A DNA stretch of 64,000 bases from Thermoproteota archaeon (GTDB lineage: Archaea > Thermoproteota > Methanomethylicia > Methanomethylicales > Methanomethylicaceae): contig JAJHRG010000001.1 of assembly GCA_020832905.1 (NCBI GenBank), positions 474,903 through 538,902 of the forward strand, read 5' to 3'. The notes beneath the pieces are model-generated. The model was not told where the DNA came from, did no database searches, and saw only the letters and a program-made list of their open reading frames with translations. Below, piece after piece: positions 8,809-43,834 of this stretch. Position 1 is the stretch's first letter. Each line of letters opens with the position of its first letter. The position numbers and the translations under genes were made by a program.

Positions 8809-9852
8809 ATGAAAAAAGAAGAGATGACTCCATATGATCGCTTAATGACTGCTTTTGAAAGAAAAAAACCTGATAGAGTGCCAGTAACTCCTTTTGTAAG
8901 AGAATGGGCAGTAAGACAAGCAGGTTTTAAATTTTCTGAAGTTATGACAAATCCTGAAAAATATGTTTATTCTCAATTATATGCAATAAGAAAATATGGA
9001 TATGATATGGTTCTTGATTTACTTGCTGTACATGCAGAATCTGAAGCTATGGGAAGTATTCTTAAGATACCAGAAGATGCTCCACCATCAGTTGATATAC
9101 CTGCTGTTCAAGATTATTCAAAAGATTTACCTAAATTAAAAATACCTCATCCAAGAAGAGATGGTCGTCTTCCAATTATATTAGAAGGAATACGTAGACT
9201 TAAACAAGCAGTTGGTGGTTATATACCTGTAATGGGTTATGTACAAGCATGTTGGAGACATACATGTATGTTAAGAGGTACTGAAAAAGCTCTTTTAGAT
9301 ATGAAGAAAAATCCTGATCAACTAAAAGAATTAATTGAAATTGCTACTGAGAGTTTAATTGTATATGCTGAAGCTGTTGTTGAAGCAGGTGCAGATTTGA
9401 TATGGGTTTCAGATCCTACATCTTCAGGTGATATGATATCAAGAAAAGCATTTGAAGAATTTGTATTTCCATATTTAAGAAGAGAAATTAGAGCAATAAA
9501 AAGAATGGGTGTTAAAGTATTTTTACATATATGTGGAAATGTAAATGATAGACTAGATCTAATGGCAGATACTGGTGCTGATGCAATAAGTGTAGATGAA
9601 AAAGTAGATTTGGCAAGAGCAAAATCTTTAGTAGGACATAAAGTATGTATTATGGGTAATATTAGTCCAGGGGTTACTTTGCTTCAAAAAACTCCAAAAG
9701 ATGTAGAAGAAGAATGTAAAATTGCTTTAGAAAAAGCCATGGCTGGAGGAGGATTTGTTTTAGCATCAGGATGTATTGTTCCTGCAGCTGCACCTGGTGA
9801 AAATATAGCAGCTATGGTAGAAGCTGCAAGAAAGTATGGTTTCTATGAGTAA
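8809..9852 (+). CDS. URO-D-family corrinoid-dependent methyltransferase (MtaA/CmuA/O-demethylase-type)
   Basis: 347 aa. 'KPDRVPVTPF' N-terminus, 'FLHICGN' and 'ASGCIVPAAAP' Zn-ligand regions of the uroporphyrinogen-decarboxylase-like methyltransferase family. Confidence 0.8.
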   Translation: MKKEEMTPYDRLMTAFERKKPDRVPVTPFVREWAVRQAGFKFSEVMTNPEKYVYSQLYAIRKYGYDMVLDLLAVHAESEAMGSILKIPEDAPPSVDIPAVQDYSKDLPKLKIPHPRRDGRLPIILEGIRRLKQAVGGYIPVMGYVQACWRHTCMLRGTEKALLDMKKNPDQLKELIEIATESLIVYAEAVVEAGADLIWVSDPTSSGDMISRKAFEEFVFPYLRREIRAIKRMGVKVFLHICGNVNDRLDLMADTGADAISVDEKVDLARAKSLVGHKVCIMGNISPGVTLLQKTPKDVEEECKIALEKAMAGGGFVLASGCIVPAAAPGENIAAMVEAARKYGFYE

Positions 9853-9863: not shown

Positions 9864-10508
9864 ATGGAGAAAGAGGAAATTTTTAAAAATCTTGCTAAAT
9901 GTGTTGTAGATGGTGATGAAGAAGGAGCAAAGAAATGGGCAGAAGAAGCTATAAAAGCTGGAATAGATGCTTATGAAGCAATAATGAAGGGATTAGCAGA
10001 AGGAATGAAAGTTGTAAGTGAAAAGTATGAAAAAGGAGAATACTATGTTCCTGAAGTTTTATTATCTGCTTCTGCTATGACTGCAGCAGTAGAAATACTT
10101 AAGCCACATATAAAAGTAGAAAAAGCAGAAAAACCTATTACAATTGTAATTGGAGTTGTTGAAGGAGATATTCATGATATTGGTAAAAATCTAGTAAAAA
10201 TAATGCTAGAAAGTGCTGGATTTAAAGTTATAGATCTTGGTAGAGATGTACCATTATCAAAATTTGTAGAAGAAGCAAAGAAGCATAATGCTGATGTAAT
10301 TGCTATGTCTGCTTTAATGACAACAACAATGCCAGGAATGAAAAAAGTAATCGAATTACTTATAAAAGAAGGATATAGAGATAAAGTAAAAACAATAATT
10401 GGAGGAGCACCAACATCACTAGAATATGCAAAATCTATAGGTGCTGATGCTTGGGCTAAGGATGCATCTGAAGCAGTTGATGTAATTAGAAATCTAGTAG
10501 CTAAATAA
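9864..10508 (+). CDS. Corrinoid (cobalamin-binding) protein, MtaC/MtbC/MttC-like
   Basis: 214 aa. N-terminal helical cap domain, then the B12-binding Rossmann domain with 'EGDIHDIGKNLV' (DxHxxG), 'SALMTTTM' and 'IGGAP'. A GAGGTGAT Shine-Dalgarno lies 3 nt before the ATG. Confidence 0.9.
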   Translation: MEKEEIFKNLAKCVVDGDEEGAKKWAEEAIKAGIDAYEAIMKGLAEGMKVVSEKYEKGEYYVPEVLLSASAMTAAVEILKPHIKVEKAEKPITIVIGVVEGDIHDIGKNLVKIMLESAGFKVIDLGRDVPLSKFVEEAKKHNADVIAMSALMTTTMPGMKKVIELLIKEGYRDKVKTIIGGAPTSLEYAKSIGADAWAKDASEAVDVIRNLVAK

Positions 10509-14995: not shown

Positions 14996-16666
14996 ATGCA
15001 AATGACAACTACATATTTAGTAATAATTGGTCTTGCATTTTGGTTATTCGGTATATTTGTTATTTCAAAGAAACTTGAAAAAGCATACTTTACACCTGAT
15101 CCTAATAGAAGAACTCCTGCTGTAGCTTTTAGAGATGATTTTGACTTCTATCCTGCAAATCCATATTCATTATTTGGTGATCATTGGGCAGCAACTGCAG
15201 GAGGAGCACCTCTATCAGGTGGTGTAGCAATAGCTCAGTGGGGATGGGCCTCAGGTATATTATATGTACTTCCAGTTAACATATTATTAGGAGCAGTTCA
15301 TGATTATGCTACTGGATTTGTTGCTATGCGTCAGCGTGGTCAAACACTAAGTGAAGTATCATATAGATGGATTACTCCTCTATCAGGTATTCTCTTTGTA
15401 TTTTTAGGTTATATTGCAATTGTAAGCTTTTGTGCAGCATTTGTTAGATTAGTAATAGTTGGAACAACAGGATTTCCAGCTCTTTTCATTCCTGTAATTT
15501 TACTAGCAGTAATAGGTCCTCCTAGTGGTTATTTACTTTATAGAAAGGGATGGCCTGTATGGCTTGTTGGAATAGTTCAGTATGTTATATTCTTAATAGC
15601 TTTATATGTGGGCTTAATGTATCCAGTAAAACTTCCTGTAGAATTTTGGTATTTATTTCTTGCAATTATAGGAATATTAGCTGCATGTCTTCCTAATTGG
15701 CTATATTCAGAACCAGCAAACTTCATGATGTTTTTATATATGACTACAGGTGTTGTATTGCTATTCTTAGGAGCTCTTATTTCAAATATGCCAGTAGAAT
15801 TTCCAGCTCTTATTTTCTATGATCCAAAATTAACACCTAGTGGATGGTTCTATCCTGGTATTACTATGATGGTATCATGTGGTGCACTTACAGGAATGCA
15901 TGTATATTGGATAGGTGCATATACATGTAAGCGTTTTCCTGAAGAAAAATGGGTAAGAATAATTGGATATGGTGGAGAAGTCTTAGAAAGTGTAGGTTTA
16001 TGGACTGCATTTTTAGCAATGCTAGTTCTTCCTGTAACAGAATATCTTCCAGCATTAAAAGCAGGTTGGACTGTAGCATATGGTGTAGGTTTTTCAAAAA
16101 TTGTAGGTACAATATTACCATTACCTGTAGATATGCTTAAAATACTTGGTATGTGGGTTGCTTTAGTATTCATAATAAGTACTTACTATTCAGGATTTAG
16201 AAATATGCGTGTACTAGGCTTAGAATTTGTACAATTAGTTACAAAAAGAAAAATAACAAAGCATGTTACAGCATCTAGATGGATTGCTGCTATTGTAACA
16301 GCACTTATTGTAATTGGTCTTGCAGTAAGTGCTGGTTATTTATACATATGGGCATTATTCCCAATATTATCAACATCATTAGCAGTATTTTCATTCATAA
16401 TAGTTGGTGAATGGTGTAGATTACATGGAAAGAATCCAATATACTGGAGAATTGCTATGTTAGTAACATTATGTGGAATATCTCTTCCAGCATCAATTTA
16501 TGGTGCATGGTGGAACTTCATGGCAGGTGCATATGTTCCTGGTGTAGTATCATTAATAGCAGCAATTGTCACATTAATATACGTAGCTGAATGGGCTAGA
16601 AAAAGATGGAGACGTGGATATACACCAGAGGAAAGAGAGCAATTCCTTAAATTCGAACAATTCTAA
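14996..16666 (+). CDS. cstA: Carbon starvation protein A family transporter (peptide/pyruvate uptake)
   Basis: 556 aa polytopic protein. The N-terminal 'NPYSLFGDHWAATAGGAPLSGGVAIAQWGW' corresponds to the CstA signature region (GHHFAAIAGAGPLVGP...). Confidence 0.8.
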   Translation: MQMTTTYLVIIGLAFWLFGIFVISKKLEKAYFTPDPNRRTPAVAFRDDFDFYPANPYSLFGDHWAATAGGAPLSGGVAIAQWGWASGILYVLPVNILLGAVHDYATGFVAMRQRGQTLSEVSYRWITPLSGILFVFLGYIAIVSFCAAFVRLVIVGTTGFPALFIPVILLAVIGPPSGYLLYRKGWPVWLVGIVQYVIFLIALYVGLMYPVKLPVEFWYLFLAIIGILAACLPNWLYSEPANFMMFLYMTTGVVLLFLGALISNMPVEFPALIFYDPKLTPSGWFYPGITMMVSCGALTGMHVYWIGAYTCKRFPEEKWVRIIGYGGEVLESVGLWTAFLAMLVLPVTEYLPALKAGWTVAYGVGFSKIVGTILPLPVDMLKILGMWVALVFIISTYYSGFRNMRVLGLEFVQLVTKRKITKHVTASRWIAAIVTALIVIGLAVSAGYLYIWALFPILSTSLAVFSFIIVGEWCRLHGKNPIYWRIAMLVTLCGISLPASIYGAWWNFMAGAYVPGVVSLIAAIVTLIYVAEWARKRWRRGYTPEEREQFLKFEQF

Positions 16667-16699: not shown

Positions 16700-17689
16700 A
16701 TGAGTCCAAAAGAAAGAACTTTTAAAATATTAGAAGGAGAAAAAGTAGATAGACCATCTGTTTTATCAGTTACTCAAACTGGTACAGTTGAGTTAATGGA
16801 AGCATCAAATGCTTATTGGCCTGATGCAAATTTTAATGCTGAGCTTATGGCAAAATTAGCAATTGCAGGTCATACAATAGCTAATTTAGAAGGTATAAGA
16901 ATTCCTTTTTGTCTTACTGTATTAGCAGAATCTATGGGTTGTATTATAGATAAAGGAAGAATTGATCGTCAACCATCTATAGCAAAAACATTATATGATC
17001 AAGGAAAAACACCAAAAGTGGAAAATTTACTAGATAGCTATAGAATTCATGTAATTCTTGATGCAATACATAAAATTAAAGAAATGAATTTTAATGTTCC
17101 ATTAATAGTTGGATTTGAAGGTCCTACTACATTAGCAGGTCATTTACTTGGTGTTGAACGACTTTGTTTAATGATGATAAGAAAACCTGAAGAAGTAAAA
17201 AGCTATATAGAAAAAGCAGAAGAAGCATGTGTTATTTATGCAAAAGAACTTATAAAAGAAGGTGCAGATATAATAGTTGTTGCTGATCCTACTGCTTCTC
17301 CATCTGTTATAAGTCCAAAAATGTTTGAAAAATTTTCAAAAGAACCATTAAAATCTATAGCAAAATTAACAAAAAGATCTGTTCTTCATATATGTGGAAA
17401 TGCTACACCAATACTTAATCATATGGCAGAATGTGGATTTTCTGGATTAAGTATAGAAGAAAAAGTAGATTTAAAAACTGCTAAATCTATTTTAAAGGAT
17501 AAAAAAGTTGCTATTATTGGTAATGTTCCTTCTGCTGGAGTTCTACTTAATGGTACTGAAGAAGAAGTTTATAATGTAGCTAAACAAGCTATTGCCTCTG
17601 GTGTAGATATTTTAGCTCCAAGTTGTGGTATAGCTCCACGTACACCTACAAGAAATATTAAAGCAATGGTTAGAGCAGCTATTTCTTAA
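16700..17689 (+). CDS. Methylcobamide:thiol (CoM-type) methyltransferase, MtaA/MtbA-like (URO-D family)
   Basis: 329 aa. 'KVDRPSVLSVTQTGTVELMEASNAYWPDA...IRIPFCLTVLAESMGC...DRQPS' closely follows the MtaA/MtbA N-terminal consensus as I recall it. 'LHICGN' and 'APSCGIAP' are the Zn-ligand regions. Confidence 0.8.
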   Translation: MSPKERTFKILEGEKVDRPSVLSVTQTGTVELMEASNAYWPDANFNAELMAKLAIAGHTIANLEGIRIPFCLTVLAESMGCIIDKGRIDRQPSIAKTLYDQGKTPKVENLLDSYRIHVILDAIHKIKEMNFNVPLIVGFEGPTTLAGHLLGVERLCLMMIRKPEEVKSYIEKAEEACVIYAKELIKEGADIIVVADPTASPSVISPKMFEKFSKEPLKSIAKLTKRSVLHICGNATPILNHMAECGFSGLSIEEKVDLKTAKSILKDKKVAIIGNVPSAGVLLNGTEEEVYNVAKQAIASGVDILAPSCGIAPRTPTRNIKAMVRAAIS

Positions 17690-20381: not shown

Positions 20382-21430
20382 AAAAAGGATATTTTACTTT
20401 CCATTAATCCAATTACTAGCTTTATTCCATCTTCTAAATCTTTTTTTGAGACTACTTCACTAAAAGTATGTAAATATCTAGTTGGAATTGAAATACAACC
20501 TGATGGTATTCCTCCTCTTGATAATTGTATAGCTGCAGCATCTGTAGTTCCTCCTTCTAAAACTCCTAATTGATATTTTATACCTAATCTATTTGCTAAT
20601 TCTATTAACCAATTAACAACTAATGAATTTGCTAATAATCCTCCTCCTAAGGACTCTCTTCTTCCATCAGCTACTACTATAACTGGTCCTTTACCAATTT
20701 TTACGGGAGCTTCACTTTCAGATACTTCAGGATGATCTCCAGCAATTGTAGTATCAATAGCAATACCTATATCTGGTTTAACATTATAAGAACTTATTGT
20801 AGCTCCTCTAAGTCCTACTTCTTCTTGAACTGTAAAAACAGCAACAATTCTATTTACTGGTTTTGCTTTTCTTAAAGCCTCAATTAATATATAACATCCA
20901 GCTCTATCATCCATTGCTTTTCCTACTATTAAATCATTTTCTAATTCTATAAGATCTCTTTCAATAGTTATAGGTGTTCCAATTCCAATACCATATTTTT
21001 CAAGTTGTTCTTTTGATAATCCAGTATCAATAAACATTTTATCATAAGTAACTAATTGTTTTCTCTCTTCTTCTTTCATTATATGTATTGCTTTACAACC
21101 AATAACTCCATATACTTTCTTATATTTTCCATGAATAATTACTCTTTGACCAAGTAGAACATGATCTGGAATTCCTCCAATTTTTGCAAATCTTATAAAT
21201 CCTTTATCATCTATATGTTTTACAATTAATCCAATTTCATCCATATGTGCTGTAATCATTATAGTTTTTTCTCCATTTCCTTTATATGCATATATATTAC
21301 CAAATTTATCTTCTTCAATTTTATCAACAAATCCTTGTAATTCCTTTTTTATTATTTCACTTATACTATATTCAAATCCAGAAACTCCTGGTGCTTCACT
21401 TATTTTTCTTAATAATTCCATTATTATCAC
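20378..21430 (-). CDS. M42 family aminopeptidase (TET/FrvX-type)
   Basis: 350 aa with 'ITAHMDEIGL', 'GKAMDDRAG', 'FTVQEEVGLRGA' and 'AIDTT'. Confidence 0.85.
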   Translation of the reverse strand: MIIMELLRKISEAPGVSGFEYSISEIIKKELQGFVDKIEEDKFGNIYAYKGNGEKTIMITAHMDEIGLIVKHIDDKGFIRFAKIGGIPDHVLLGQRVIIHGKYKKVYGVIGCKAIHIMKEEERKQLVTYDKMFIDTGLSKEQLEKYGIGIGTPITIERDLIELENDLIVGKAMDDRAGCYILIEALRKAKPVNRIVAVFTVQEEVGLRGATISSYNVKPDIGIAIDTTIAGDHPEVSESEAPVKIGKGPVIVVADGRRESLGGGLLANSLVVNWLIELANRLGIKYQLGVLEGGTTDAAAIQLSRGGIPSGCISIPTRYLHTFSEVVSKKDLEDGIKLVIGLMESKISFL

Positions 21431-22827
21431 TCCTCAATTTTTATTTCAATTTCCTCATTATCAATTTTAATCTTAAACCATTTAATTTCTTTTCTTTTTT
21501 CTTTTCTTTCACTCATACTAATAGCTTTTGTTTCACCTTTTAAGAATGATACTGCTACTTGTGGAAATAATAAATATGTAAGAGCATCTTCTTCTTTTTT
21601 AAATAAAGATTTAACATCTTCAGGAATATCCTTAAATGTTAATTCTTTTGGAGGATTTGATGGCTTTACTTTTTGTAAAAGCTCTTCACTTATTTTACCA
21701 GGAGGTTTTCCATAAAATCCATTAATGTAATCTTCAACTTCTTTTATAATTGTTCCATATCTCTTTCCAGTAATTACATTAATAACTGCTTGTGTTCCAA
21801 CTATTTGACTCATTGGAGTAACTAATGGTGGATATCCTAAATCTCTTCTTACTATTGGTACTTCATCTAATACTTCTTTTAATTTTGATAATGCATTAAA
21901 TTCTTTAAGTTGAGCTATAAGATTAGATAACATACCTCCAGGTATTTGATGTTTTAAAGCTTTAGGATCTATTCTATCTGTAATTTCTGATGCATAACCT
22001 TTGTACTTTTCTCTTATTTTCTCAAAATATTCAGAACATTCATATATAATTTCAATATTTATATGAGATAATAATCCTGTATCTCTTAAGGCATCATAAA
22101 TTACTTCAATTGAAGGATGAGAAGTTCCAAAAGCAAATGGTGCTAATGCAGTATCAATAAATTCTGCTCCTGCTTCTATTCCTTTCATAAGTGAAAGAGA
22201 TGCTAATCCACAAGAATAATGACAATGTAAACCTACTGGTAATCCAGTTTCCTTTCTTATTCCTCTTACAAGATCAAATGCAGTTCTTGGTGCTAATAAT
22301 CCTGCCATATCTTTTATTCTTATTGCATCTACTTCCATTTCTGCAATTTTTTTTGCTACTTCAATAAAATAATCTACTGTATGTATTGGACTACGTGTAT
22401 ATACTATATCTCCATGTACTTCTGCTCCTACTTCTTTTGCAATTTTTATTGGCTTTCTTAAATTATCTACATCATTTAAAGCATCAAATATTCTAAAAAC
22501 ATCAACACCATTTTCATATGCTTTCTTAATAAAAGCTTCAATAACCTCATCATGATAATGTCTATAACCTACTAAATTCTTTCCTCTTAATAGCATTACT
22601 ACTTTTGTCTTTTTCAATTCTCTTTTTATTTTTCTTAATCTTTCCCAAGGATCTTCATTTAAATATCTTATACATACATCAAAAGTTGCTCCTCCCCAAG
22701 CTTCAATACCATAAAATCCAGCATCATCCATTTTTCCTAATATGGGTAAAATATCTTCAGTTTTTAATCTAGTAGCAATTAATGATTGTTGTCCATCTCT
22801 TATTGTTACATCTATTACTTTTAGCAA
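21427..22827 (-). CDS. Carboxyltransferase subunit (pyruvate carboxylase B / oxaloacetate decarboxylase alpha-like) without biotinyl domain
   Basis: 466 aa with 'DVTIRDGQQS', 'IKDMAG' and 'LHCHYSCG'. The protein ends '...KWFKIKIDNEEIEIKIEE', and I find no AMKM biotin-attachment motif. Confidence 0.85.
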   Translation of the reverse strand: MLKVIDVTIRDGQQSLIATRLKTEDILPILGKMDDAGFYGIEAWGGATFDVCIRYLNEDPWERLRKIKRELKKTKVVMLLRGKNLVGYRHYHDEVIEAFIKKAYENGVDVFRIFDALNDVDNLRKPIKIAKEVGAEVHGDIVYTRSPIHTVDYFIEVAKKIAEMEVDAIRIKDMAGLLAPRTAFDLVRGIRKETGLPVGLHCHYSCGLASLSLMKGIEAGAEFIDTALAPFAFGTSHPSIEVIYDALRDTGLLSHINIEIIYECSEYFEKIREKYKGYASEITDRIDPKALKHQIPGGMLSNLIAQLKEFNALSKLKEVLDEVPIVRRDLGYPPLVTPMSQIVGTQAVINVITGKRYGTIIKEVEDYINGFYGKPPGKISEELLQKVKPSNPPKELTFKDIPEDVKSLFKKEEDALTYLLFPQVAVSFLKGETKAISMSERKEKRKEIKWFKIKIDNEEIEIKIEE

Positions 22828-22953
22828 TACTTCATCACCATTATGTAAACTTTATTAATACATTTTTAAATATATTGATTTACTTTTTGTTTATCCTTCT
22901 TTTAGAATTTAAAGCGAAATATATATTTTTAGGTTCTTTTTTCCTTTTCCTAG

Positions 22954-24423
22954 GTGAGTTTTTTGGCAAGAGGAAGCAAAGAAATACTTCAAAAACTTGA
23001 ACAAATTGTTGGTCCTGATTATGTAAGCAATGAAGAAGCAGTACTTTTGCCATATTCTTGGGATTTAACATGGACAGAACCAAGAATGCCTGATTATGTT
23101 GTTATGCCAAAAACAGTTACTGAAATACAACGTATACTAAGATTAGCAAATCATTACAGAATACCAGTAATTCCATATGTAAATGCAACTAATATTGGTG
23201 GATTATGTGTTCCAGAAGAAGGAGGTATTGTAATAGATTTAAAAAGAATGGATAGAATAATAAAAATTGATCCTGAGACATGCTATGCAGTAATAGAACC
23301 AGGAGTAAGTCATGCACAACTTTCAGCTGCACTTAAAGCAACAAATCCACAATGGGAAGGTTATGAATTTTCAAAAGGATTTGAATTTGGATGGGGAGTA
23401 CATCCAGCATCAGCATCTGTTTTAGCTATGGCAATTAATCATGGAATTGGTCATCTTAATGGTAGATTAGGAATTAATAGTCAATTAATTTCAAGTATGG
23501 AAGTAGTACTTCCTACAGGTGAAGTTGTAAAATTAGGATCTTGTGCATTTTCTGATTCATGGCATTCATTCCTTCCATTACCAAGAATGGATGGACTTTT
23601 TGTAGGATGGATGGGAACTACTGGTATTGTAACAAAATTAGGAATATGGATCTTTCCAATAAGACCATACAAAGATGTACTAACAATAGCAGCAGAAACT
23701 GCATACGATATGACAAGATATATGGTTCATTGGCGTCATTATTCATTATGTGATGAAGTTACTGCAGTAAGTTGGTGGTTAGCTCAAATACCTATTCCAT
23801 ATCCATATCAAGAAAAACCAAAAGATGTTCCTGAATGGTTTAGCTATACTGTAATAAGTGGTTGGAGTGAAGAAGAATTAGAATATAAAAGAAAAATGTG
23901 GAAGAAAGTTGTAGAAGAAGAAAGAGCAAGAGGTACAAAATTAATTGATTTTGAATATCCACCTGAAGCAAAAAGAGGAAGAACAGAATTACCAAGTAGA
24001 ATTATAGGATCTACAAAGAATTATTCAAAATCATGTGGTGGAGGATTGGCTTGGCCAGGAACATTTGCACCATGTAAGAGCTGGCCTATATTATATGAAA
24101 AATGGAAGGAAATTTATATACGTCATAATCTATCACCTGCAGTAAGATTTACTGACTTCCAAGGTGCACATTATGGAATGTTAAGAGCAATGACACCATT
24201 TGATAAAAGAGATCCTGATTCTGTAAGAAGAGCTAAAGAAGCTATGATAGAATGTATAAGAGTTGGAATACCATTAGGAATGCTTCCTTATAAGCCACCA
24301 GTAGAATTTGTAAATGAATTAAATGCTAGAGCAGATCCAGGTTATATTTATCTATTAACAAAAATAAAGGATATGTTAGATCCAAATAATATAATGAATC
24401 CAGGTAAATTAGGTATAAGATGA
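22954..24423 (+). CDS. FAD-linked oxidase/dehydrogenase, GlcD-like (divergent), copy B
   Basis: 489 aa, a paralogue of 2201-3763 ('LEQIVGPDYVS', 'PDYVVMPKTVTEIQRILRLANHYRIPV', 'AVIEPGVS', 'GTTGIVTKLGI', 'LDPNNIMNPGKL'). The start is GTG 22954 or TTG 22963; the latter lies 4 nt after an AGGTGAG Shine-Dalgarno. Confidence 0.8.
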   Translation: MSFLARGSKEILQKLEQIVGPDYVSNEEAVLLPYSWDLTWTEPRMPDYVVMPKTVTEIQRILRLANHYRIPVIPYVNATNIGGLCVPEEGGIVIDLKRMDRIIKIDPETCYAVIEPGVSHAQLSAALKATNPQWEGYEFSKGFEFGWGVHPASASVLAMAINHGIGHLNGRLGINSQLISSMEVVLPTGEVVKLGSCAFSDSWHSFLPLPRMDGLFVGWMGTTGIVTKLGIWIFPIRPYKDVLTIAAETAYDMTRYMVHWRHYSLCDEVTAVSWWLAQIPIPYPYQEKPKDVPEWFSYTVISGWSEEELEYKRKMWKKVVEEERARGTKLIDFEYPPEAKRGRTELPSRIIGSTKNYSKSCGGGLAWPGTFAPCKSWPILYEKWKEIYIRHNLSPAVRFTDFQGAHYGMLRAMTPFDKRDPDSVRRAKEAMIECIRVGIPLGMLPYKPPVEFVNELNARADPGYIYLLTKIKDMLDPNNIMNPGKLGIR

Positions 24424-24433
24424 GGTGATGGAA

Positions 24434-25672
24434 ATGGCACTTGTATTAAAGAGAACTGATATGAAAGAATTAGCACAGCTTTATGATAGAATTTCCATGT
24501 GTACACAGTGTGGAAATTGTAAATATGGATATGAATATGGTCCAACTGAAAACTTTGCAGCAATGCTATGTCCTCAAGGAGATAAATATCAATTTGAAGC
24601 ATATAGAGGATCAAAAGGAAAAGCAGCTCTTGCTAAAGGTCTTTTAAGTGGAATGATAGAATGGAGTGATAAAGCAGCACATATCATATTTACATGTATT
24701 GGATGTGGTGCTTGTGTAGAAATGTGTGAAACTGATATCAAAGATTATCTTCAAAGAATGTTTGAAGCTCTTAAAAGTGAAGCTTGGAAACAAAATGTTG
24801 CCATACCTGAAGGTGTAAGAAAATGGAGTAGTACTATTAGAGAAAATCGTAATCCTTACTTAGAGAAACATGAAGATAGACTTAATTGGTTACCAGCTAG
24901 TATAAGAGAAAGTCTTCCAAAGAAAGCTGAATATATATACTTTGTTGGTTGTACTGCCTCATATAGACAAAAAAATATTGCATTAGCTACAGTTAAATTA
25001 TTACAAAAATTAAAAATTGACTTCACAATAGTTCCTGATGAATGGTGTTGTGCATCTCCATTATTAAGAACAGGACAATATGATATAGCAAAAGAATTCA
25101 TAGAGCACAATAGAGAATTACTAGGAAAATATGGTGCAAGTGCATTTATAACTACATGTGCTGGATGTTATAGGACATTATCTATAGACTATCAGAAAGA
25201 TCCTCCAGAAGGATATACAGATAAATTTGGTAAATCTAACTTCAAAGTAATTCATACAATACAATTAGTAGAAGAAATGATAAAGAAAGGTGAAGTAGAA
25301 TTTGAAGGAAGCTTTAATTATGTAGTTACATATCATGATCCATGTCATCTTGGAAGACATGCAAAAGTCTATGATTCTCCACGTAATGTACTACAAGCCA
25401 TACCTGGATTAAAACTTGTTGAAATGTATAGAAGTAAAAAGTTCTCATTCTGTTGTGGTGCTGGTGGAGGAGTAAGAGGAGGATTCCCAGATTATTCAAT
25501 TGAAACAGCAATTAAGCGTATAAGAGAAGCAGAATCTACTGGTGCATCTATAATAACATGTGTTTGTCCATTCTGTTGGAGAAATTTAAATGATGCTATT
25601 AATGCATCTAAATCATCAATGAAAATGATGGATATTACAGAAATACTTGAACCTATAATTAAAAGAAAGTAA
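24434..25672 (+). CDS. Fe-S oxidoreductase with two CCG domains (GlcF/HdrD-like), copy B
   Basis: 'CTQCGNC...LCPQ', 'CIGCGACVEMC', 'WCCASPL', 'FCCGAGGG' and 'YHDPCHLGR'. ATG 24434 lies 5 nt after a GAGGTGA Shine-Dalgarno overlapping the upstream TGA, so track start 24425 is rejected. Confidence 0.8.
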   Translation: MALVLKRTDMKELAQLYDRISMCTQCGNCKYGYEYGPTENFAAMLCPQGDKYQFEAYRGSKGKAALAKGLLSGMIEWSDKAAHIIFTCIGCGACVEMCETDIKDYLQRMFEALKSEAWKQNVAIPEGVRKWSSTIRENRNPYLEKHEDRLNWLPASIRESLPKKAEYIYFVGCTASYRQKNIALATVKLLQKLKIDFTIVPDEWCCASPLLRTGQYDIAKEFIEHNRELLGKYGASAFITTCAGCYRTLSIDYQKDPPEGYTDKFGKSNFKVIHTIQLVEEMIKKGEVEFEGSFNYVVTYHDPCHLGRHAKVYDSPRNVLQAIPGLKLVEMYRSKKFSFCCGAGGGVRGGFPDYSIETAIKRIREAESTGASIITCVCPFCWRNLNDAINASKSSMKMMDITEILEPIIKRK

Positions 25673-25693
25673 TCTTTCTTCTTTTTATTTTTT

Positions 25694-26728
25694 ATGAATT
25701 TTAAAATTATTAATGGTTTATTAGATCCTGATGAAAGGATTAGTTATATAAATAGAAAAATTGAATCATGTAGAAATAACTATATAAATGTTCCTTTTAA
25801 AGATCCTGCTATTGGAATTTTAAGTAAATTAAGAAAAAATTTTGAATTAATAGAAAATGAAGTAGAAAATTGGCTTACTCCTACACCATCTCCTGATTTT
25901 ATCTTTATGGTTACAGTTGAGAATATTGTTACTTTTATTGATTCTAATGGTTGTAAAGAATATGCAGATAAACTCATGGAAATTGTAAAAAATAATGTAC
26001 TTCCTGATATACCTATTTTAATTGGTATTGATCATTCACTTTCAGGTGGTGTAATAAAAGCTATTTGTAAAGAATATGGTGAAGAAAATATTAGATTAAT
26101 TATTTTTGATAGTCATTTTGATTTTATATTACCAAAAATAAGATGTGGTCTTATACATTATGACTTAGAAAATAATCCAAATACAAAATTTTCTCCATTT
26201 GATCCATATATATACAATAGACCAAATAGTTATAATGCTGATTCTTTTTTATATTATTTACTTAAAGATTTTCCACCAGAAAATATGTTTATAATTGGTG
26301 TAAATGATTATCCATCAAAAATTGTAGAAAAAATAGATGATATTCGTGTAAGAAGATATGTTGAATTCTACAAAACTATAGAAGAAGCAGGAGTTCATGT
26401 TATTAAAAGAGAAGATATTGAAAAGAATTGGAATAATGTTCATCAAATAATTTCAAATACAAATTTACCATATACTTATGTATCAATTGATGTTGATGTA
26501 TGTGCTAATACTTCTATTAAAGGAGCAAGATTTTTAGATTATATGGGAATATCACATAGAGATCTTTATAAACTTGTATCTTCTATAAAAAATTCAAAAA
26601 TTATTGGTATTGATATTATGGAATTTGATGTTTATAATGCAGGAGCAAAAATTTTTGGTAAAGAAGATAGAACTTATGATATTATGGCTGAAGTACTAAA
26701 TAGATTAATAGACAAATGTCTAGTATAA
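25694..26728 (+). CDS. Arginase-fold metallohydrolase (divergent ureohydrolase family), copy B
   Basis: 344 aa, a paralogue of 5253-6416. Shared blocks are 'LLDPDE', 'FIDSNGCKEY', 'IGIDHSLSGGVI', 'IIFDSHFDF', 'NSYNADSFLY', 'VSIDVDV', 'IGIDIMEFD' and 'EDRTYDI'. Confidence 0.7.
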   Translation: MNFKIINGLLDPDERISYINRKIESCRNNYINVPFKDPAIGILSKLRKNFELIENEVENWLTPTPSPDFIFMVTVENIVTFIDSNGCKEYADKLMEIVKNNVLPDIPILIGIDHSLSGGVIKAICKEYGEENIRLIIFDSHFDFILPKIRCGLIHYDLENNPNTKFSPFDPYIYNRPNSYNADSFLYYLLKDFPPENMFIIGVNDYPSKIVEKIDDIRVRRYVEFYKTIEEAGVHVIKREDIEKNWNNVHQIISNTNLPYTYVSIDVDVCANTSIKGARFLDYMGISHRDLYKLVSSIKNSKIIGIDIMEFDVYNAGAKIFGKEDRTYDIMAEVLNRLIDKCLV

Positions 26729-26943
26729 TTACGATAAAAGTCGAAGGGAAAATATTATATATTTCGTTAGTTATCTATTATATTGAAGAAAAATGTTAGT
26801 ATTAAGAAAAGAAGTAAAAATAGATAAAGAGAAGGAAATACAAAAAAGAATTATAGAGTTATGGAATAGTCCATTAGAAATATGGGATCCACAAGAATAA
26901 GAATTATATTTTAGACTTTAATTTTTATAAATGGTGTTAAAAA

Positions 26944-27753
26944 TTGTTATTTAGTATTGTAAAGGAATTAGTACCTATTATTGCAAACTTTATTATATAT
27001 TTCATAATATTATTAATTTTAATTCTATTTCTCTCATCATCTATTAAAATAGTAAAAGAATATGAAAGAGCAGTAATATTTAGATTAGGAAGACTACTTG
27101 GTGCAAAAGGTCCAGGATTATTCTTTATAATACCTTTTGTTGATAGTATGAGAAAAATAGATCTAAGAGTTTTAACATTTGATGTTCCTAAGCAAACAAT
27201 AATAACAAAAGATAATGTAACAGTTCAAGTAGATGCTGTTGTTTATTATAGAGTTTATGATCCTATTAAAGCAGTTACTCAAGTAGAGAATTATATACTA
27301 TCTACAAATCTACTTGCTCAAACAACTCTTAGAGATATTCTTGGACAAGTAACACTTGATGATTTACTTACTAAAAGAGAAGAATTAAATCAAAAACTTC
27401 AAATTGCTTTAGATGCTCCTACAGATGCATGGGGGGTAAAAGTTACTGCAGTAGTTATAAAAGATGTAGTATTACCTGAATCACTTCAAAGAGCTATGGC
27501 AAAACAAGCTGAAGCTGAAAGAGAAAGAAGATCAAGAATTATTGTTGCAGAAGGAGAATATGAAGCAGCAAAGAAAATGCGTGAAGCTGCTGAATTATAT
27601 GAAAAGAATCCAATTGCTCTTCGTTTAAGAGAACTTCAAATGATATCAGAAGTCGCAAGAGAGAAAAATCTTATATTAATTACTACAACAGGTACATCTT
27701 CAATTGCAGAATATGCAGGTTTAGCTAAAGCCTTAATTAAAACGGAGAAATAA
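26944..27753 (+). CDS. Stomatin/prohibitin-like SPFH (band 7) protein
   Basis: 269 aa, TTG start. N-terminal TM helix, then 'IVKEYERAVIFRLGR', 'VDAVVYYRV', 'RDILG' and a coiled-coil 'AEAERERRSRIIVAEGE'. Confidence 0.9.
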   Translation: MLFSIVKELVPIIANFIIYFIILLILILFLSSSIKIVKEYERAVIFRLGRLLGAKGPGLFFIIPFVDSMRKIDLRVLTFDVPKQTIITKDNVTVQVDAVVYYRVYDPIKAVTQVENYILSTNLLAQTTLRDILGQVTLDDLLTKREELNQKLQIALDAPTDAWGVKVTAVVIKDVVLPESLQRAMAKQAEAERERRSRIIVAEGEYEAAKKMREAAELYEKNPIALRLRELQMISEVAREKNLILITTTGTSSIAEYAGLAKALIKTEK

Positions 27754-27754
27754 T

Positions 27755-29065
27755 ATGAAAAAACTTCTTATTTTTCTTTTCTTAATTTTTTTCACTTGCT
27801 TTATTTCATATTCTTATTCTACATATAATGAAGAAAAAGTATTAGTATTTAAAATAAGTGGAACAATAACCATAGCTCATTATGAAGCATTATTAGATGC
27901 AATTAATATTGCAAAAAAAGAAAATTATAATGCAGTAATAATTCTAATTTCTACTCCTGGTGGAAGTTTAGATGCTACATTAAAAATAATTACTCTTATT
28001 GAAAATTCACCTATTCCTATTATTGGTTATGTTTATCCTCCAGGATCAACAGCATGGTCTGCTGGCACATACATACTAATGGCGTGTCATATTGCTGCAA
28101 TGGCACCAAATACAATAATAGGCTCATGTCAACCTGTTTCTTATTCTCCTTTTGGCTCAACACCTATCAATGATACAAAAATAATAAATGCTCTTATATC
28201 ATTAATGTCAACTCAAGCTAAAGCTCATGGAAGAAATGAAACTATAGCTATTAAGTTTATAACAGAAAACTTAAATTTAAATGATGAAGAAGCATTTTTA
28301 TATAATGTAATAGAAGTAAGAGCAAAAGATATTAATGATTTACTTAATAAAATTGATGGAAAAGAAGTTAATACAATTTTTGGTACAATTAAATTAAATA
28401 CAAAAAATGCAATAATTACAGAATATAGCTTTAGAATAAGAGAAAGTATGCTAAATGTAATTTCTGATCCTATGATTGCTAGTATTTTATTTCTAATTGG
28501 AATAATTGCTTTAATATATGGATTTTCTACTCCTGGTCATGGAGGTGAAATTATTGGTATTATTTCATTAATATTATCATTAATTGGAATGGGCTTTGAT
28601 ATTAATATAGCTGGACTTATTATGATGTTAGGTGGAGCAATTTTACTTATTTATGAGCTTATGACACCTGGTTTTGGATTTTTTGGAATTTCAGGAATAA
28701 TATTATTAGTACTAGGATCTTTATTTATACCACCTCTATCACCTGAAAAATGGATTATATCTAGTGAGTGGTATTCTACTTTTACTTATACAATTCTACT
28801 TACAGCAATTCTATTTTCTTCATTATTTACTTTAATAATAATTAAAGTAATTCAAGTAAGAAGAAGAAAACCTATTATTGGTAATATGATAGGAGATATA
28901 GTAACATCAACATCAGATGCTTTACCAAATGAAATAGCATTTGTAATGTATAAAGGAGAATATTGGCAAGCAAAATGTAAAAATGGAATTAAAAAAGGTA
29001 AAAAATATAAAATTATTGGTAAAGATGGACCTGTATTAATTCTTGAGGAAATTGATGAAATATGA
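27755..29065 (+). CDS. NfeD-family membrane-bound ClpP-class serine protease (stomatin operon partner)
   Basis: 436 aa. Signal/TM, then a ClpP-like domain 'ISTPGGSLDAT...AWSAGTYILMACHIAAMAP', central TM helices and a C-terminal OB-like NfeD domain. The gene starts 1 nt after the stomatin gene. Confidence 0.85.
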   Translation: MKKLLIFLFLIFFTCFISYSYSTYNEEKVLVFKISGTITIAHYEALLDAINIAKKENYNAVIILISTPGGSLDATLKIITLIENSPIPIIGYVYPPGSTAWSAGTYILMACHIAAMAPNTIIGSCQPVSYSPFGSTPINDTKIINALISLMSTQAKAHGRNETIAIKFITENLNLNDEEAFLYNVIEVRAKDINDLLNKIDGKEVNTIFGTIKLNTKNAIITEYSFRIRESMLNVISDPMIASILFLIGIIALIYGFSTPGHGGEIIGIISLILSLIGMGFDINIAGLIMMLGGAILLIYELMTPGFGFFGISGIILLVLGSLFIPPLSPEKWIISSEWYSTFTYTILLTAILFSSLFTLIIIKVIQVRRRKPIIGNMIGDIVTSTSDALPNEIAFVMYKGEYWQAKCKNGIKKGKKYKIIGKDGPVLILEEIDEI

Positions 29066-40476: not shown

Positions 40477-40640
40477 GTATAATAATATTCATAATATTAC
40501 TTTCTTTATGTTTTATATTAGTTCCAATAATTGCAGTAACAATTGGTGGATGGTATGCATACTGGGGTGCTTTAATAATTAGCATTATATGGACTATAAT
40601 ATTATTGATTTTAAGAATTAAATATTGGGAGGAAGAATAA
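40473..40640 (+). CDS. Small two-helix membrane protein (55 aa) preceding the symporter, not in ORF track
   Basis: My translation is MSIIIFIILLSLCFILVPIIAVTIGGWYAYWGALIISIIWTIILLILRIKYWEEE. It has an AGAGGAG Shine-Dalgarno, an ATGA overlap with the regulator stop, and its TAA overlaps the symporter ATG (TAATG). Confidence 0.45.
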   Translation: MSIIIFIILLSLCFILVPIIAVTIGGWYAYWGALIISIIWTIILLILRIKYWEEE

Positions 40641-42181
40641 TGATACCTACACCAACACAAGAAACAGCAATTTCAACAATTATAGCAGTATTATCAATGT
40701 TAGCTATTAGTACTATAATTGGAGTATTATTTTATAGAAAATCAAAAAATTTTGATGAATGGCTTATTGGTCATAGAGATCTTGGCCCTATTACTACTGG
40801 TTTAGCTCTTACAGCAACATGGATGAGTGGTTGGGCAATATTTGGAAATGCTGGTCTTGGTTATACTTATGGCTGGTCTGGCTCATGGCTTATTGGTATT
40901 ACAAATTTAATGGGATTATCTTTATGTGTTGTTATTGGATATAGAATGCGACATTATGTTTCACTTGGAGCAAGAACAGTTCCTGAAGTTGTTAGAGTAA
41001 GATTTGATAGTAAGTTATTACAGATTCTTACTGGTATAACAATGATACTTTTATTAATTGTATATAGTGTTGGTCAATATAAGGCAATGGCTTCTGTTTG
41101 GTGTCTTACTACTGGAAGTGATTGGCTATTAAGTTTAACATTTACTGCAATATTATGTGGTATATATTTAGCTCTTGGTGGTTATACTGGTACACAATTT
41201 TCATTAGCATTACAAGGTTTAATCTTTATGATAATTGGATGGATATTTGGAATAGCTTCTATTATATGGGCAGGTGGTCCTGAAAAAATTGCAGAATGTC
41301 TATTAAATGCAAATTATGTAGCACCAGGAGGTAGAATAACATCAATACCTTTAAGTGGTTATACTGCAGCTATTACTCCAGCTTTTGCTGCATATGATTG
41401 GATTGGAGTTACAGGTGTATTATTTATGTTCTTACTTATGGCAACAGGTTTTCCACATAATATTGCTAGATTCTTAGGTATGAGGAAAGTAACAAAAAGA
41501 GAATTCATCATACTAATGATAATTGTTATACTAAATTGTATTACACCATTAATGATAGGCGTAATGGGATTTGCAGCAAGAACTGTTTGGGGAGCAGAAC
41601 TTATGAAGATAGCTCCAGTTTATGGTGATGCTGCTGCTACACTTGTAAGTATGGCAATTGGAGGTCCTTTAGGTGCAGGAGTATTCTCTATGGCAGTATT
41701 TGCTGCTGCAATTTCAACATTAGCAGGTATGGTAATGATAATGGCAACAAATATTACAAAAGATATTATTAGTAATATTGTACCAAATATTAAGCCTAAT
41801 ATACTTCTTATAATTTCAAGAATTTCTATAATTCCATTAATGTTAATTCCTCTATGGTGGACTTATACATCACCTCCACCTTTATTATCAGAATTTATGG
41901 CAGGATCTGCAGTAGCTCAAGCAGGAATATTCTTTTTTGTTGTAGCAATTTCTATGTATTGGAAAAGAGCTACAAAAATTGGAGCTATATGTACTATAAT
42001 TTATGGTATAATTCTTACATTATTACATCCTTCAGTTTATGGTAAATATATTCCACCATTTAATCATTGGGGTATTTGGGCATTAACATTAATGTTTGGT
42101 TGTGGAGTAGTATACTTTACAGTAAGCTTATTTACAAGACCACTACCAAAAGAAAAACTTGATACTATTTTTCCAAAATAA
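40640..42181 (+). CDS. Sodium:solute symporter family (SSF) transporter, copy 1
   Basis: About 513 aa and polytopic. 'GHRDLGPITTGLALTATWMSGWAIFGNAGLGY' is typical of the SSF N-terminal region. ATG 40640 follows a GGGAGG Shine-Dalgarno, so the track TTG 40625 is rejected. Confidence 0.85.
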   Translation: MIPTPTQETAISTIIAVLSMLAISTIIGVLFYRKSKNFDEWLIGHRDLGPITTGLALTATWMSGWAIFGNAGLGYTYGWSGSWLIGITNLMGLSLCVVIGYRMRHYVSLGARTVPEVVRVRFDSKLLQILTGITMILLLIVYSVGQYKAMASVWCLTTGSDWLLSLTFTAILCGIYLALGGYTGTQFSLALQGLIFMIIGWIFGIASIIWAGGPEKIAECLLNANYVAPGGRITSIPLSGYTAAITPAFAAYDWIGVTGVLFMFLLMATGFPHNIARFLGMRKVTKREFIILMIIVILNCITPLMIGVMGFAARTVWGAELMKIAPVYGDAAATLVSMAIGGPLGAGVFSMAVFAAAISTLAGMVMIMATNITKDIISNIVPNIKPNILLIISRISIIPLMLIPLWWTYTSPPPLLSEFMAGSAVAQAGIFFFVVAISMYWKRATKIGAICTIIYGIILTLLHPSVYGKYIPPFNHWGIWALTLMFGCGVVYFTVSLFTRPLPKEKLDTIFPK

Positions 42182-43661: not shown

Positions 43662-43832
43662 ATGTTTTCTATATTAATTACTAAGTTAGCTATAAAAATA
43701 ATATCAAGTAGTGATAGAATCTTAGGAATGCTTCCAATAACATTTGTTTGCTTAATTATTCCCATTATAGTTCAGATATTAATACTAACATTATGGGCAC
43801 TTAAGTGGAAATCACCAGAAAAGGAGGGTTAA
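43662..43832 (+). CDS. Small membrane protein (56 aa) preceding second symporter, not in ORF track
   Basis: My translation is MFSILITKLAIKIISSSDRILGMLPITFVCLIIPIIVQILILTLWALKWKSPEKEG. The ATG directly follows the ligase TAG, and the stop lies 2 nt before the symporter ATG. Confidence 0.45.
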   Translation: MFSILITKLAIKIISSSDRILGMLPITFVCLIIPIIVQILILTLWALKWKSPEKEG

Positions 43833-43834
43833 AA

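Follow-up and report, generated by a model that had tools for sequence, protein, structure and literature searches.

Three consecutive genes at positions 22954-26728 of the window, that is, of the 64,000-nucleotide stretch of contig JAJHRG010000001.1 (a Thermoproteota archaeon of the Methanomethylicaceae; G+C content 28%) analysed here, encode a flavin adenine dinucleotide-binding flavoprotein (FAD), an iron-sulfur protein of the HdrD type with CCG domains (CCG) and a putative ureohydrolase of the arginase fold (ARG), and the linkage of these genes recurs in both archaea and bacteria. At somewhat less than even odds, a conserved catabolic or redox cassette, spread by horizontal sharing, is represented by the trio in a trimmed, archaeal form. 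As the general scheme of this cassette we propose, with a probability of about 0.4, that the ureohydrolase acts first and is followed by FAD/HdrD-type oxidation and then by an aldehyde oxidiser. The proposal builds on which genes are observed, on their conserved linkage, on catalytic residues that are intact and on the families to which the proteins were assigned, and upon this base we infer the substrate, the order of the steps and the electron acceptor. The three genes, designated copy B, are as follows (+ and - denote the strand):

22954-24423 (+), FAD_B: 489 aa with a GTG start, flavoprotein of the VAO/PCMH superfamily, the 'GlcD' of the methanogen literature, with a family-specific cap domain

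24425-25672 (+), CCG_B: soluble HdrD-type Fe-S protein with two [4Fe-4S] ferredoxin motifs and two CCG domains

25694-26728 (+), ARG_B: 344 aa, protein of the ureohydrolase (arginase) superfamily, from a small deep clade with a clade-specific N-terminal extension of ~90 residues

In the list of open reading frames (ORFs) CCG_B has in-frame starts at GTG 24425, ATG 24428 and ATG 24434, the last of which is the likely one, as it stands behind the Shine-Dalgarno sequence GAGGTGA (24422-24428) overlapping the TGA stop of FAD_B (24421-24423). With this start the gaps within the trio amount to 10 and 21 nt, which agrees with the preliminary description of this DNA, where three co-directional genes with such gaps and the same Shine-Dalgarno sequence had been reported; all the motifs quoted there (GIDHS, FDSHFD, SIDVDV, DIMEFD, WCCASPL and FCCGAGGG) and its two ferredoxin motifs (CTQCGNC and CIGCGAC) were also found. 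The operon structure of copy B is judged from spacing only.

The linkage was assessed in two samples. One genome per species (GTDB) was scanned with an ARG-clade profile, giving 80 loci, 79 of them with the gene, which were scored by tblastn and ORF clustering; an independent metagenome scan, with the flavoprotein as its seed, added 80 loci, and all loci together are numbered L001-L171. The flanks covered 10 kb only, so that a gene absent from a locus need not be absent from the genome. In 44 of the 79 loci, FAD and/or CCG were located no more than 10 kb from ARG, two more loci ending on the relevant side, and chance adjacency would be expected, by our own uncomputed estimate, at a few percent per genome. 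The nearest loci, both from the Methanomethylicota metagenome-assembled genome (MAG) WYZ-LMO11 (L002, L064), share 90-97% protein identity with both copies found in the window (copy A is described below). The gene order varies: FAD-CCG-ARG in Methanomethylicia, one Bathyarchaeia MAG and the 'Halobacteria' UBA8915; ARG convergent with CCG-FAD, as in copy A, in nine Methanomethylicia loci; FAD-CCG-[URO-D::B12-binding fusion]-ARG in three Archaeoglobi; FAD-CCG-URO-D-ARG-ferredoxin-AOR (AOR, aldehyde:ferredoxin oxidoreductase) in Archaeoglobi JdFR-42; AOR-x-FAD-CCG-URO-D-x-ARG in a peat Methanomethyliaceae MAG; and ARG-FAD-CCG in four bacterial MAGs. Across lineages, FAD and CCG are the only neighbours that ARG has in common in the GTDB species loci. 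The linkage has persisted through rearrangement, in two deep paralogous sets and across a transfer between domains, which chance does not explain, and the synteny counts (44/79 loci, several gene orders, both domains of life) rule out the coincidental adjacency of ARG and GlcD/GlcF-like genes, which the preliminary description had considered.

In the metagenome sample ARG lies just downstream in 14 of the 15 archaeal-type loci, and CCG is present in all 40 bacterial-type ones. Where the downstream flank of a bacterial-type locus reached at least 9.5 kb, a URO-D protein was found in 18/18, an aldehyde dehydrogenase (ALDH) in 14/18, an AOR-like protein in 12/18 and ARG in 6/18 loci. The constant presence of URO-D and CCG points to a core composed of the flavoprotein, the CCG protein and an MtaA-like methyltransferase, and the ureohydrolase is near-universal in archaeal copies and accessory in bacterial ones (about one third).

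The bacterial cluster was read from the contigs encoding five bacterial flavoproteins and one bacterial ARG. It recurrently comprises a GntR/FCD regulator; the ALDH, with a 145-aa protein behind it; the FAD and CCG genes; a transporter, which is either an ABC system of the Liv/Urt type or a membrane protein of 460-480 aa accompanied by an 80-aa partner; URO-D; and ARG. A corrinoid protein and a RACo activase lie nearby, and the divergently oriented genes encode a ferredoxin, an AOR-like protein that is truncated, a protein resembling BPL_N, and cytochromes. Orthologous clusters occur in Desulfobacterota and Thermoleophilia, i.e., the cassette is not archaea-specific. Besides the flavoprotein and the CCG protein, its recurring components are a Zn methyltransferase resembling MtaA, accompanied by a corrinoid protein and an activase, an enzyme oxidising aldehydes (AOR or an ALDH of the methylmalonate/malonate-semialdehyde dehydrogenase, MMSDH, type) and a transporter. 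The three-gene unit proposed in the preliminary description reflects a true functional association, but the real unit is bigger, including the methyltransferase, the corrinoid protein, the aldehyde oxidiser and the transporter. Against the MtaA model the URO-D proteins of the cassette score 294-390 bits, and their H-x-C...C zinc motif is retained in bacterial and archaeal members alike. For the ALDH of related loci (there is none in the window) the CoA-acylating MMSDH TIGR01722 was the top family in 11 of 11 proteins tested, eight of which exceeded the cut-off of 448.5 (473-544 bits) and three fell below it (405-445). The closest family to the ABC binding protein of the bacterial clusters is the urea-binding UrtA, with a score (83-86 bits) far under the cut-off. 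Relaxed Pfam scans of the 145-aa protein, of the 460-480-aa membrane protein with its 80-aa partner and of the ORF clusters c87, c46 and c60 gave only weak hints (Rubrerythrin 4e-4; MFS_MOT1 6e-3 to 1.6e-2).

Several further features accompany the bacterial clusters. The divergent set of L081, L084-L089 and L117-L170 comprises a 118-122-aa ferredoxin, a 435-aa protein with AFOR_N only, a 437-aa BPL_N/GATase-like protein, multihaem cytochromes c, cytochrome b and a second CCG protein. In L090/L091 (13098-17420, minus strand) FAD (487 aa), CCG (439 aa) and another FAD (504 aa), resembling GlcD-GlcF-GlcE, stand beside an FAD-CCG-ARG-ALDH cluster, with two MoeA genes upstream. A radical-SAM/GNAT (ELP3-like) gene follows the ALDH in L084, L085 and L089, and in L089 an AIRS/PurM-like gene comes next.

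Within the window itself, the remaining parts of the cassette (AOR, ThiS-like protein, URO-D and corrinoid protein) are found around copy A, about 20 kb away from copy B:

2201-3763 (+), FAD_A: paralogous flavoprotein, 27% identical to FAD_B

3764-5077 (+), CCG_A: paralogous HdrD-type protein, 39% identical to CCG_B

5253-6416 (-), ARG_A: paralogue of the same clade, 37% identical to ARG_B, convergent with CCG_A at a distance of 175 nt, with a C-terminal extension of ~45 residues

6583-8451 (+), protein of the AOR family, divergent from ARG_A (Pfam AFOR_N and AFOR_C)

8484-8759 (+), ThiS/MoaD-like small protein with a GG C-terminus, between the AOR and methyltransferase genes (Pfam ThiS 3e-12), kept as cluster c48 in copy-A loci

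8809-9852 (+), Zn methyltransferase of the MtaA/CmuA family, URO-D fold (Pfam URO-D 1.2e-82)

9864-10508 (+), corrinoid (B12-binding) protein cognate to the methyltransferase (Pfam B12-binding and B12-binding_2; NCBIfam TIGR02370, 230 bits at a cut-off of 215)

All three families thus recur at 2201-6416, as was noticed earlier, but not as a co-directional trio, since ARG_A is convergent and lies on the minus strand. The low identities between the copies indicate old paralogues and no recent duplication. Orthologues of FAD_A (85-94% identity) adjoin those of CCG_A and ARG_A in nine further Methanomethylicia loci, and the convergent position of ARG_A is kept in L055, L057-L059, L062, L064, L065, L078 and L079. 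The distance between AOR and ARG is 99-200 bp in L055, L059, L064, L065, L078 and L079 and 548 bp in the Archaeoglobi locus L052; the AOR at 6583-8451 appears to be the aldehyde-oxidising partner of the copy-A cluster. The methyltransferase at 8809-9852 combines the URO-D fold, the H-x-C...C zinc motif and an adjoining corrinoid protein, and stays below the NCBIfam cut-offs of PRK06252 (217.8 bits vs 244) and of the MtaA equivalog (192.7 vs 400). Distinct from this divergent MtaA-like protein is a bona fide MtaA encoded at 16700-17689 (+; NCBIfam MtaA_Meth 411.8 bits, cut-off 400), directly upstream of which lies a CstA-family transporter gene (14996-16666, +). Two paralogous sodium:solute symporters of cluster c66 are encoded at 40625-42181 and 43805-45421 (both +); the same cluster comprises the symporter adjoining the ALDH-FAD-CCG-URO-D-ARG cluster of Archaeoglobi (L041, L045, L053).

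The ARG proteins match the Pfam Arginase family PF00491 (7.8e-19 for copy B and 3.1e-22 for copy A), and all top Foldseek matches of the AlphaFold2 model of ARG_B (pLDDT 94.4) are ureohydrolases. The metal ligands H114, D139, H141, D143, D266 and D268, together with E310, the equivalent of the guanidinium-binding Glu277, are kept in at least 184 of the 185 clade members. Such near-perfect conservation of the ligands and of the catalytic Glu argues for catalysis, and, judged by its residues, ARG appears to be a catalytically intact ureohydrolase. The canonical substrate loop (S-x-D-x-D-x-x-DP...PGTGTP) is replaced by SIDVDVCAN...KGARF, with a clade-specific Arg279 present in 183 of 185 members, and the near-invariance of this residue would be compatible with an anionic substrate.

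The clade is small, sharply bounded and remote from all characterised ureohydrolases: when 1.84 billion representatives were searched exhaustively with a profile, only 146 clusters were found at E<=1e-30 and 251 at E<=1e-10. Curated NCBIfam cut-offs are missed by a factor of 4-6 (ARG_B: agmatinase 46.3 vs 174.3 bits, arginase 34.2 vs 227.6, HutG 36.4 vs 229.2; ARG_A is similar), the best PDB profile match has an E-value of 6e-11, and Foldseek TM-scores are only 0.5-0.6 at 13-18% identity, with no subfamily prominent. These scores and distances place ARG outside the characterised agmatinase, arginase and formiminoglutamase clades, membership in which had been considered in the preliminary description as an objection to the module; a housekeeping agmatinase is ruled out by the scores, the clade size and the genomic context. 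By their names, the homologues come from Methanomethylicia/Verstraetearchaeota (54-91% identity), Methanofastidiosa (~43%), Hecatellales and a few bacteria; the bacterial ones (clusters of Desulfobacterota and Thermoleophilia) belong to the same clade with 38-44% identity and the same N-terminal extension. Ten longer proteins of the clade were scanned, and no informative domain fusion was found, the Arginase domain being alone. More distant members (27-40% identity; L054, L056, L060, L061, L063, L071, L072 and L076, from Helarchaeota, Deferrimicrobium, Geothermincolia and Acidimicrobiales) adjoin sugar-related genes (FGGY kinase, GH4 glycosidase, a melibiase-like 800-aa protein, HAD hydrolase, SDR), not FAD/CCG, and in Methanofastidiosa and NM3-type archaea ARG stands alone beside Lrp/AsnC-type regulators, so the clade may hold more than one function.

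The flavoprotein was called GlcD-like and of VAO/PCMH type in the preliminary description, and the superfamily, indicated by the FAD_binding_4 domain (9.7e-26 in FAD_B), stands, but FAD_B is no GlcD orthologue, reaching 91.7 bits to NCBIfam GlcD (TIGR00387) at a cut-off of 567.9. FAD-oxidase_C matches only its last ~30 residues (455-486), and no PDB match by sequence exists for the cap domain (residues ~240-410). Neither copy is accompanied by a GlcE-like gene according to the ORF list and Pfam. The best PDB matches are 4-phenol oxidoreductases (7.7e-31), ahead of D-lactate dehydrogenase (D-LDH, 7e-22), and the AlphaFold2 model (pLDDT 78.5) gives Foldseek TM-scores of about 0.8 both to mouse D-LDH (mLDHD, 0.78-0.84) and to 4-phenol oxidoreductases. 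The flavoprotein represents a separate subfamily, nearer in sequence to 4-phenol oxidoreductases than to 2-hydroxy-acid dehydrogenases, while in fold mouse D-LDH ties with the former. The similarity to p-cresol methylhydroxylase (PCMH), vanillyl-alcohol dehydrogenase/oxidase and eugenol oxidase is highest in the FAD domain and the C-terminal helix, within the same two-domain fold, but the cap sequence is unrelated, no cytochrome c subunit is present and the phenolate-binding Tyr-Tyr-Arg triad is eroded: its first Tyr (GYGG loop) is deleted, and what remains is the second Tyr with Lys for Arg in copy B (P-Y-K) and P-A-R in copy A. Membership in the 4-phenol oxidoreductases was dropped because of the deleted Tyr. 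The flavoprotein family is large, with more than 3438 matches at E<=1e-10, many of them with 52-55% identity in Desulfobacterota, Thermoleophilia and Acidobacteriota.

In both CCG proteins the HdrD architecture is complete: two full C-x(31-39)-CC-x(35-36)-CxxC motifs start at residues 176 and 307 (copy B) or 205 and 331 (copy A), and CxxCxxC motifs at residues 26 and 91 (copy B) or 61 and 123 (copy A). In Pfam, CCG_B matches CCG (7.8e-35, in two stretches) and the dicluster ferredoxin Fer4_8. It misses every curated NCBIfam cut-off of HdrB, HdrD, TfrB, GlcF and GlpC (TfrB, the best, 220.9 bits vs 385; HdrB 62.6 vs 345; GlcF 40.3 vs 333), and its PDB matches are EtfD (9ojn, 2.5e-31) and HdrB (4.5e-13). 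The CCG proteins thus share two ferredoxin-type [4Fe-4S] motifs and two CCG domains with proteins of the HdrD/TfrB/EtfD type, TfrB being the nearest family and EtfD the nearest solved structure, but they are paired with a VAO/PCMH-superfamily flavoprotein instead of a fumarate reductase flavoprotein or ETF, and no membrane partner (HdrE or cytochrome b) adjoins either copy in the window. No hydrophobic segments were found in any of the six proteins of copies A and B.

The FAD/CCG pair is the published glcD/hdrD pair of Methanomethylicia, Bathyarchaeota and Archaeoglobi, a candidate heterodisulfide reductase. Co-located hdrD and glcD, the latter encoding an FAD-containing dehydrogenase, were proposed to reduce the heterodisulfide of coenzymes M and B (CoM-S-S-CoB) in Methanomethyliales, Bathyarchaeota and Archaeoglobus (PMC6421429), the pair has been treated as a lactate-type/heterodisulfide-linked dehydrogenase (PMC6421429; bioRxiv 10.1101/2022.08.18.504445), and an HdrD2-GlcD cluster was singled out in Mcr-Archaeoglobi (bioRxiv 10.1101/2022.12.01.518715). 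The genes of the published pair (Methanomethylicia, Bathyarchaeota BA1, Archaeoglobi) are the same as FAD/CCG here: the Methanomethylicus V1 and V3 MAGs (L014, L020) and two complete genomes of Methanosuratincola (L017, L019) carry FAD-CCG orthologues with 82-85% and 68-69% identity, followed by ARG. The strains Methanosuratincola petrocarbonis LWZ-6 and M. verstraetei LCB70, to which the latter two loci belong, are cultured according to published descriptions. A full-text search found no literature joining a gene of the arginase/agmatinase family with HdrD, GlcD, MtaA or heterodisulfide reductase; the module was earlier regarded as undescribed, which holds for the linkage to the ureohydrolase but not for the FAD/CCG pair itself.

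In terms of mechanism, ARG, as an active binuclear-metal ureohydrolase, would release urea from a small anionic guanidino (amidino) compound, most likely a short omega-guanidino acid of the 3-guanidinopropionate type, leaving an amine; the flavoprotein would oxidise this product at the heteroatom-bearing carbon to an aldehyde of the malonate-semialdehyde type; and the HdrD-type subunit, with its [4Fe-4S] and CCG clusters, would conduct the electrons to a disulfide, presumably CoM-S-S-CoB in this archaeon and another acceptor in bacteria. The aldehyde would be removed by AOR (here beside copy A) or by the CoA-acylating MMSDH-type ALDH (in Archaeoglobi and bacteria), and the MtaA-like methyltransferase with its corrinoid protein may act on a methyl group or a thiol that belongs to this substrate or to a sister one. 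That the ALDH is consistently of the MMSDH type, a type acting on OHC-CH(R)-COO-, suggests a skeleton like that of a 3-substituted propionate, and the pathway would accordingly run on a 3-substituted propionate or an isosteric ethanesulfonate, X-CH2-CH2-Y. The guanidinopropionate-type substrate in particular is a tentative and rather doubtful choice. Pseudomonas converts 3-guanidinopropionate to beta-alanine (by GpuA of the arginase family), further to malonate semialdehyde and, via MMSDH, to acetyl-CoA, which provides a precedent for two of the three proposed steps; in the cassette, the FAD/Fe-S dehydrogenase would replace the transaminase step, in an anaerobic context. With the GpuA/GbuA guanidino-acid hydrolases ARG shares the arginase fold with the binuclear metal site, the association with MMSDH-type ALDH and a likely anionic substrate, but differs by the additional N-terminal extension and the remodelled substrate loop. 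Urea release followed by FAD/Fe-S oxidation towards a disulfide-type acceptor, as suggested in the preliminary description, is kept as the most economical reading, without specific support for the hydroxy acid or D-amino acid substrate named there.

A number of observations weigh against this scheme. Its main weakness is that a plain guanidino-acid route does not explain the MtaA-like methyltransferase and the corrinoid protein, although their genes are the ones to which ARG lies closest (no more than 600 bp from URO-D in 19 loci of other lineages and from B12 in six). Since ARG is present in only about one third of the bacterial clusters, the flavoprotein does not depend on it; conversely, clade members of Methanofastidiosa, NM3-type archaea, Helarchaeota and Geothermincolia have no FAD/CCG within 10 kb. 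To our knowledge, no amine-oxidising member exists among the closest structural neighbours of the flavoprotein. ARG is only 13-15% identical to the guanidino-acid hydrolases 3nip/3niq (Foldseek E ~2-5e-11, TM 0.50-0.53), which rank no better than arginases and agmatinases, and no aldehyde oxidiser adjoins copy B. On methanol or methylamines, the additional hdrD copies of cultured Mcr-Archaeoglobi show weak expression (PMC10945360). Finally, ARG and MtrH occur together in 0 of 171 loci (35 loci have ARG and URO-D without MtrH, and 14 have MtrH and URO-D without ARG), the operons being of either the MtrH-URO-D-B12-RACo or the URO-D-ARG-B12-RACo type (e.g., L121, L138, L141, L164 vs L136, L081, L089), and this mutual exclusion is explained by none of the hypotheses offered here.

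The methyltransferase is central to the main rival explanation, a thioether/thiol route that we consider rather unlikely, in which the cassette would degrade or use a compound of the 3-(methylthio)propionate or methyl-CoM type. The MtaA-like enzyme and the corrinoid protein would strip the S-methyl group (transferring it to CoM in methanogens and, via MtrH, to tetrahydrofolate in bacteria), FAD/HdrD would oxidise the thiol left behind, either 3-mercaptopropionate or an analogue of CoM, with sulfide and either malonate semialdehyde or sulfoacetaldehyde as products, ALDH or AOR would finish the pathway, and the ureohydrolase would feed a guanidino analogue into it or have a non-canonical role. 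This would suit URO-D as the most constant partner of the flavoprotein (18/18 bacterial loci with sufficient flank), its MtaA-like score and its thiolate-binding zinc motif, the existence of full systems with corrinoid protein, RACo activase and MtrH, an ALDH suited to malonate semialdehyde and an HdrD-type subunit as a thiol/disulfide catalyst. The URO-D::B12 fusion of Archaeoglobi, which we take to have the same two domains as MtsD/F/H of Methanosarcina, would also fit. However, the ureohydrolase is left without a clear job despite its presence in 14/15 archaeal-type loci, no thiol-oxidising flavoenzyme is known in this superfamily, no methyltransferase is encoded near copy B in the window, and the mutual exclusion of ARG and MtrH is not accounted for. 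If true, this route would supply a methyl group and two electrons for methane in a methyl-reducing methanogen. With the known corrinoid systems (MtaA, MtsA/MtsB, MtpA/MtpC and the bacterial SCMT-like 'mlp') the cassette shares an MtaA-like URO-D protein with the zinc motif, a corrinoid protein and, in bacteria, the RACo activase, to which it adds the flavoprotein/HdrD pair, the MMSDH-type ALDH and the ureohydrolase; the 'mlp' cluster is a different one, described without mention of FAD, aldehyde, agmatinase or ureohydrolase (PMC10418091).

A more speculative extension, which we regard as improbable, is that in 'hydrogen-dependent' methyl-reducing methanogens (Methanomethylicia, Mcr-Archaeoglobi and others) the cassette obtains a methyl group, as well as the two electrons needed to reduce the heterodisulfide, from a single small organic molecule of the X-CH2-CH2-COO-/SO3- type, such as guanidinopropionate, taurocyamine or methylmercaptopropionate. 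The ureohydrolase clade would then act inside a corrinoid methyltransferase system in place of the bacterial MtrH; as a variant, the cassette would run to sulfoacetaldehyde and CoM, i.e., serve for coenzyme M salvage.

Another unlikely explanation follows the literature on the glcD/hdrD pair and takes ARG for a bystander: FAD/CCG would be a D-lactate or other 2-hydroxy-acid:heterodisulfide oxidoreductase (GlcD/HdrD, Dld-like), and ARG an unrelated SpeB-like enzyme of arginine or polyamine metabolism. The pair is annotated and discussed in this way (PMC6421429; bioRxiv 10.1101/2022.08.18.504445, 10.1101/2022.12.01.518715), the fold of the flavoprotein matches mouse D-LDH as well as any other (TM 0.78-0.84), and the solitary ARG beside Lrp/AsnC-type regulators in Methanofastidiosa and NM3-type archaea is placed as an amino-acid-related gene might be. 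Against this stand the linkage retained through rearrangements, in two old paralogous sets and in two domains of life, the small and separate clade of ARG, far from agmatinase (46 vs 174 bits), and the flavoprotein itself, which widely misses the GlcD and D-LDH equivalog cut-offs and is closer in sequence to 4-phenol oxidoreductases; moreover, MMSDH-type ALDH and MtaA-like methyltransferase have no place in lactate oxidation.

That same sequence affinity underlies a methoxy/para-phenol route, in which a corrinoid O-demethylase would unmask a 4-hydroxy group, the PCMH/VAO-like flavoprotein would oxidise the benzylic side chain and pass electrons to CCG (in place of cytochrome c), and ALDH or AOR would take the aromatic aldehyde; we find it very improbable. 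Vanillyl-alcohol dehydrogenase, PCMH and eugenol oxidase are indeed the best sequence matches of the flavoprotein, its C-terminal 'PYK' aligns with the phenolate-binding Tyr473-Arg474 of PCMH, the MtrH-URO-D-B12-RACo order is the gene architecture of bacterial O-demethylases, and Liv-type ABC transporters can carry aromatic acids. Nevertheless, the first Tyr of the triad is deleted family-wide and copy A lacks the second one, the ALDH is of MMSDH type and not an aromatic aldehyde dehydrogenase, the ureohydrolase has no role, and the URO-D protein is MtaA-like and does not belong to the O-demethylase branch. This branch is only ~17% identical to CoM methyltransferases (PMC10418091); MtoB proteins are 47-48 kDa in size (PMC8630106). 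Least probable of all is a non-enzymatic ARG serving as a structural, regulatory or maturation subunit of a methyltransferase or dehydrogenase complex, to which its place within certain operons, flanked by URO-D and the corrinoid protein (L136, L103, L043; in the bacterial L136 the order is URO-D-ARG-B12-RACo), its mutual exclusion with MtrH and the conserved ~90-residue N-terminal extension might point, since the metal ligands and the catalytic Glu are near-perfectly kept across 185 members and stand-alone copies occur in several lineages.

The DNA flanking copy B contains the following additional features. FAD_B is preceded by a putative promoter region:

22828-22953 (+), divergent, AT-rich intergenic region of 126 nt upstream of FAD_B, read from the sequence

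It carries a TATA-like element aaatatatattttt at ~22918-22932, ~25 nt ahead of the GTG start. The region is shared with a divergent gene of the pyruvate carboxylase subunit B/oxaloacetate decarboxylase alpha type (21427-22827, -; NCBIfam PRK09282, 658.6 bits), and this arrangement is kept in about ten Methanomethylicia loci (cluster c18). The final 40 nt ahead of ARG_B (25654-25693) include a TATA-like tataattaaaag inside the end of CCG_B and then a T-rich run ttcttctttttatttttt; this stretch could be an internal archaeal promoter or a partial terminator, and ARG_B may thus also be transcribed separately. A spacer of 215 nt after ARG_B (26729-26943) holds a candidate small ORF at ~26794-26900 (~35 aa, MLVLRKEVKIDKEKEIQKRIIELWNSPLEIWDPQE). 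It is followed at 26944-29065 (+) by genes of a 269-aa protein and a 436-aa membrane protein, by eye a stomatin/SPFH-like and NfeD-like pair. From 26944 to ~35668 the order of the genes (this pair and about eight more, clusters c3-c12) is kept downstream of ARG_B in more than 15 Methanomethylicia genomes, which looks like lineage synteny and not like a part of the module.

For the re-reduction of CoM-S-S-CoB in Methanomethylicia and related methyl-reducing methanogens, the hdrD/glcD pair is one standing candidate. What is new here is a ureohydrolase clade of about 150-250 sequence clusters without an assigned substrate, by which an already noticed gene pair is extended. Orthologues of this pair (52-65% identity for the flavoprotein) occur in bacteria presumed to be without CoM and CoB, and the assignment of HdrD/GlcD as a heterodisulfide reductase therefore needs care. 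The archaeal pair is nearly always followed by the ureohydrolase, and the cassette to which it belongs, with its MtaA-like methyltransferase system and its ALDH of the malonate-semialdehyde type, is shared with sulfate reducers, which leads to the hypothesis of an organic electron donor of a specific type. As the trio is present in the two complete genomes of Methanosuratincola (L017, L019), this hypothesis is directly testable. If the single-compound or the coenzyme M salvage reading were true, the range of substrates and the energy metabolism now accepted for these archaea would have to be revised, and the ureohydrolases would gain a new function.

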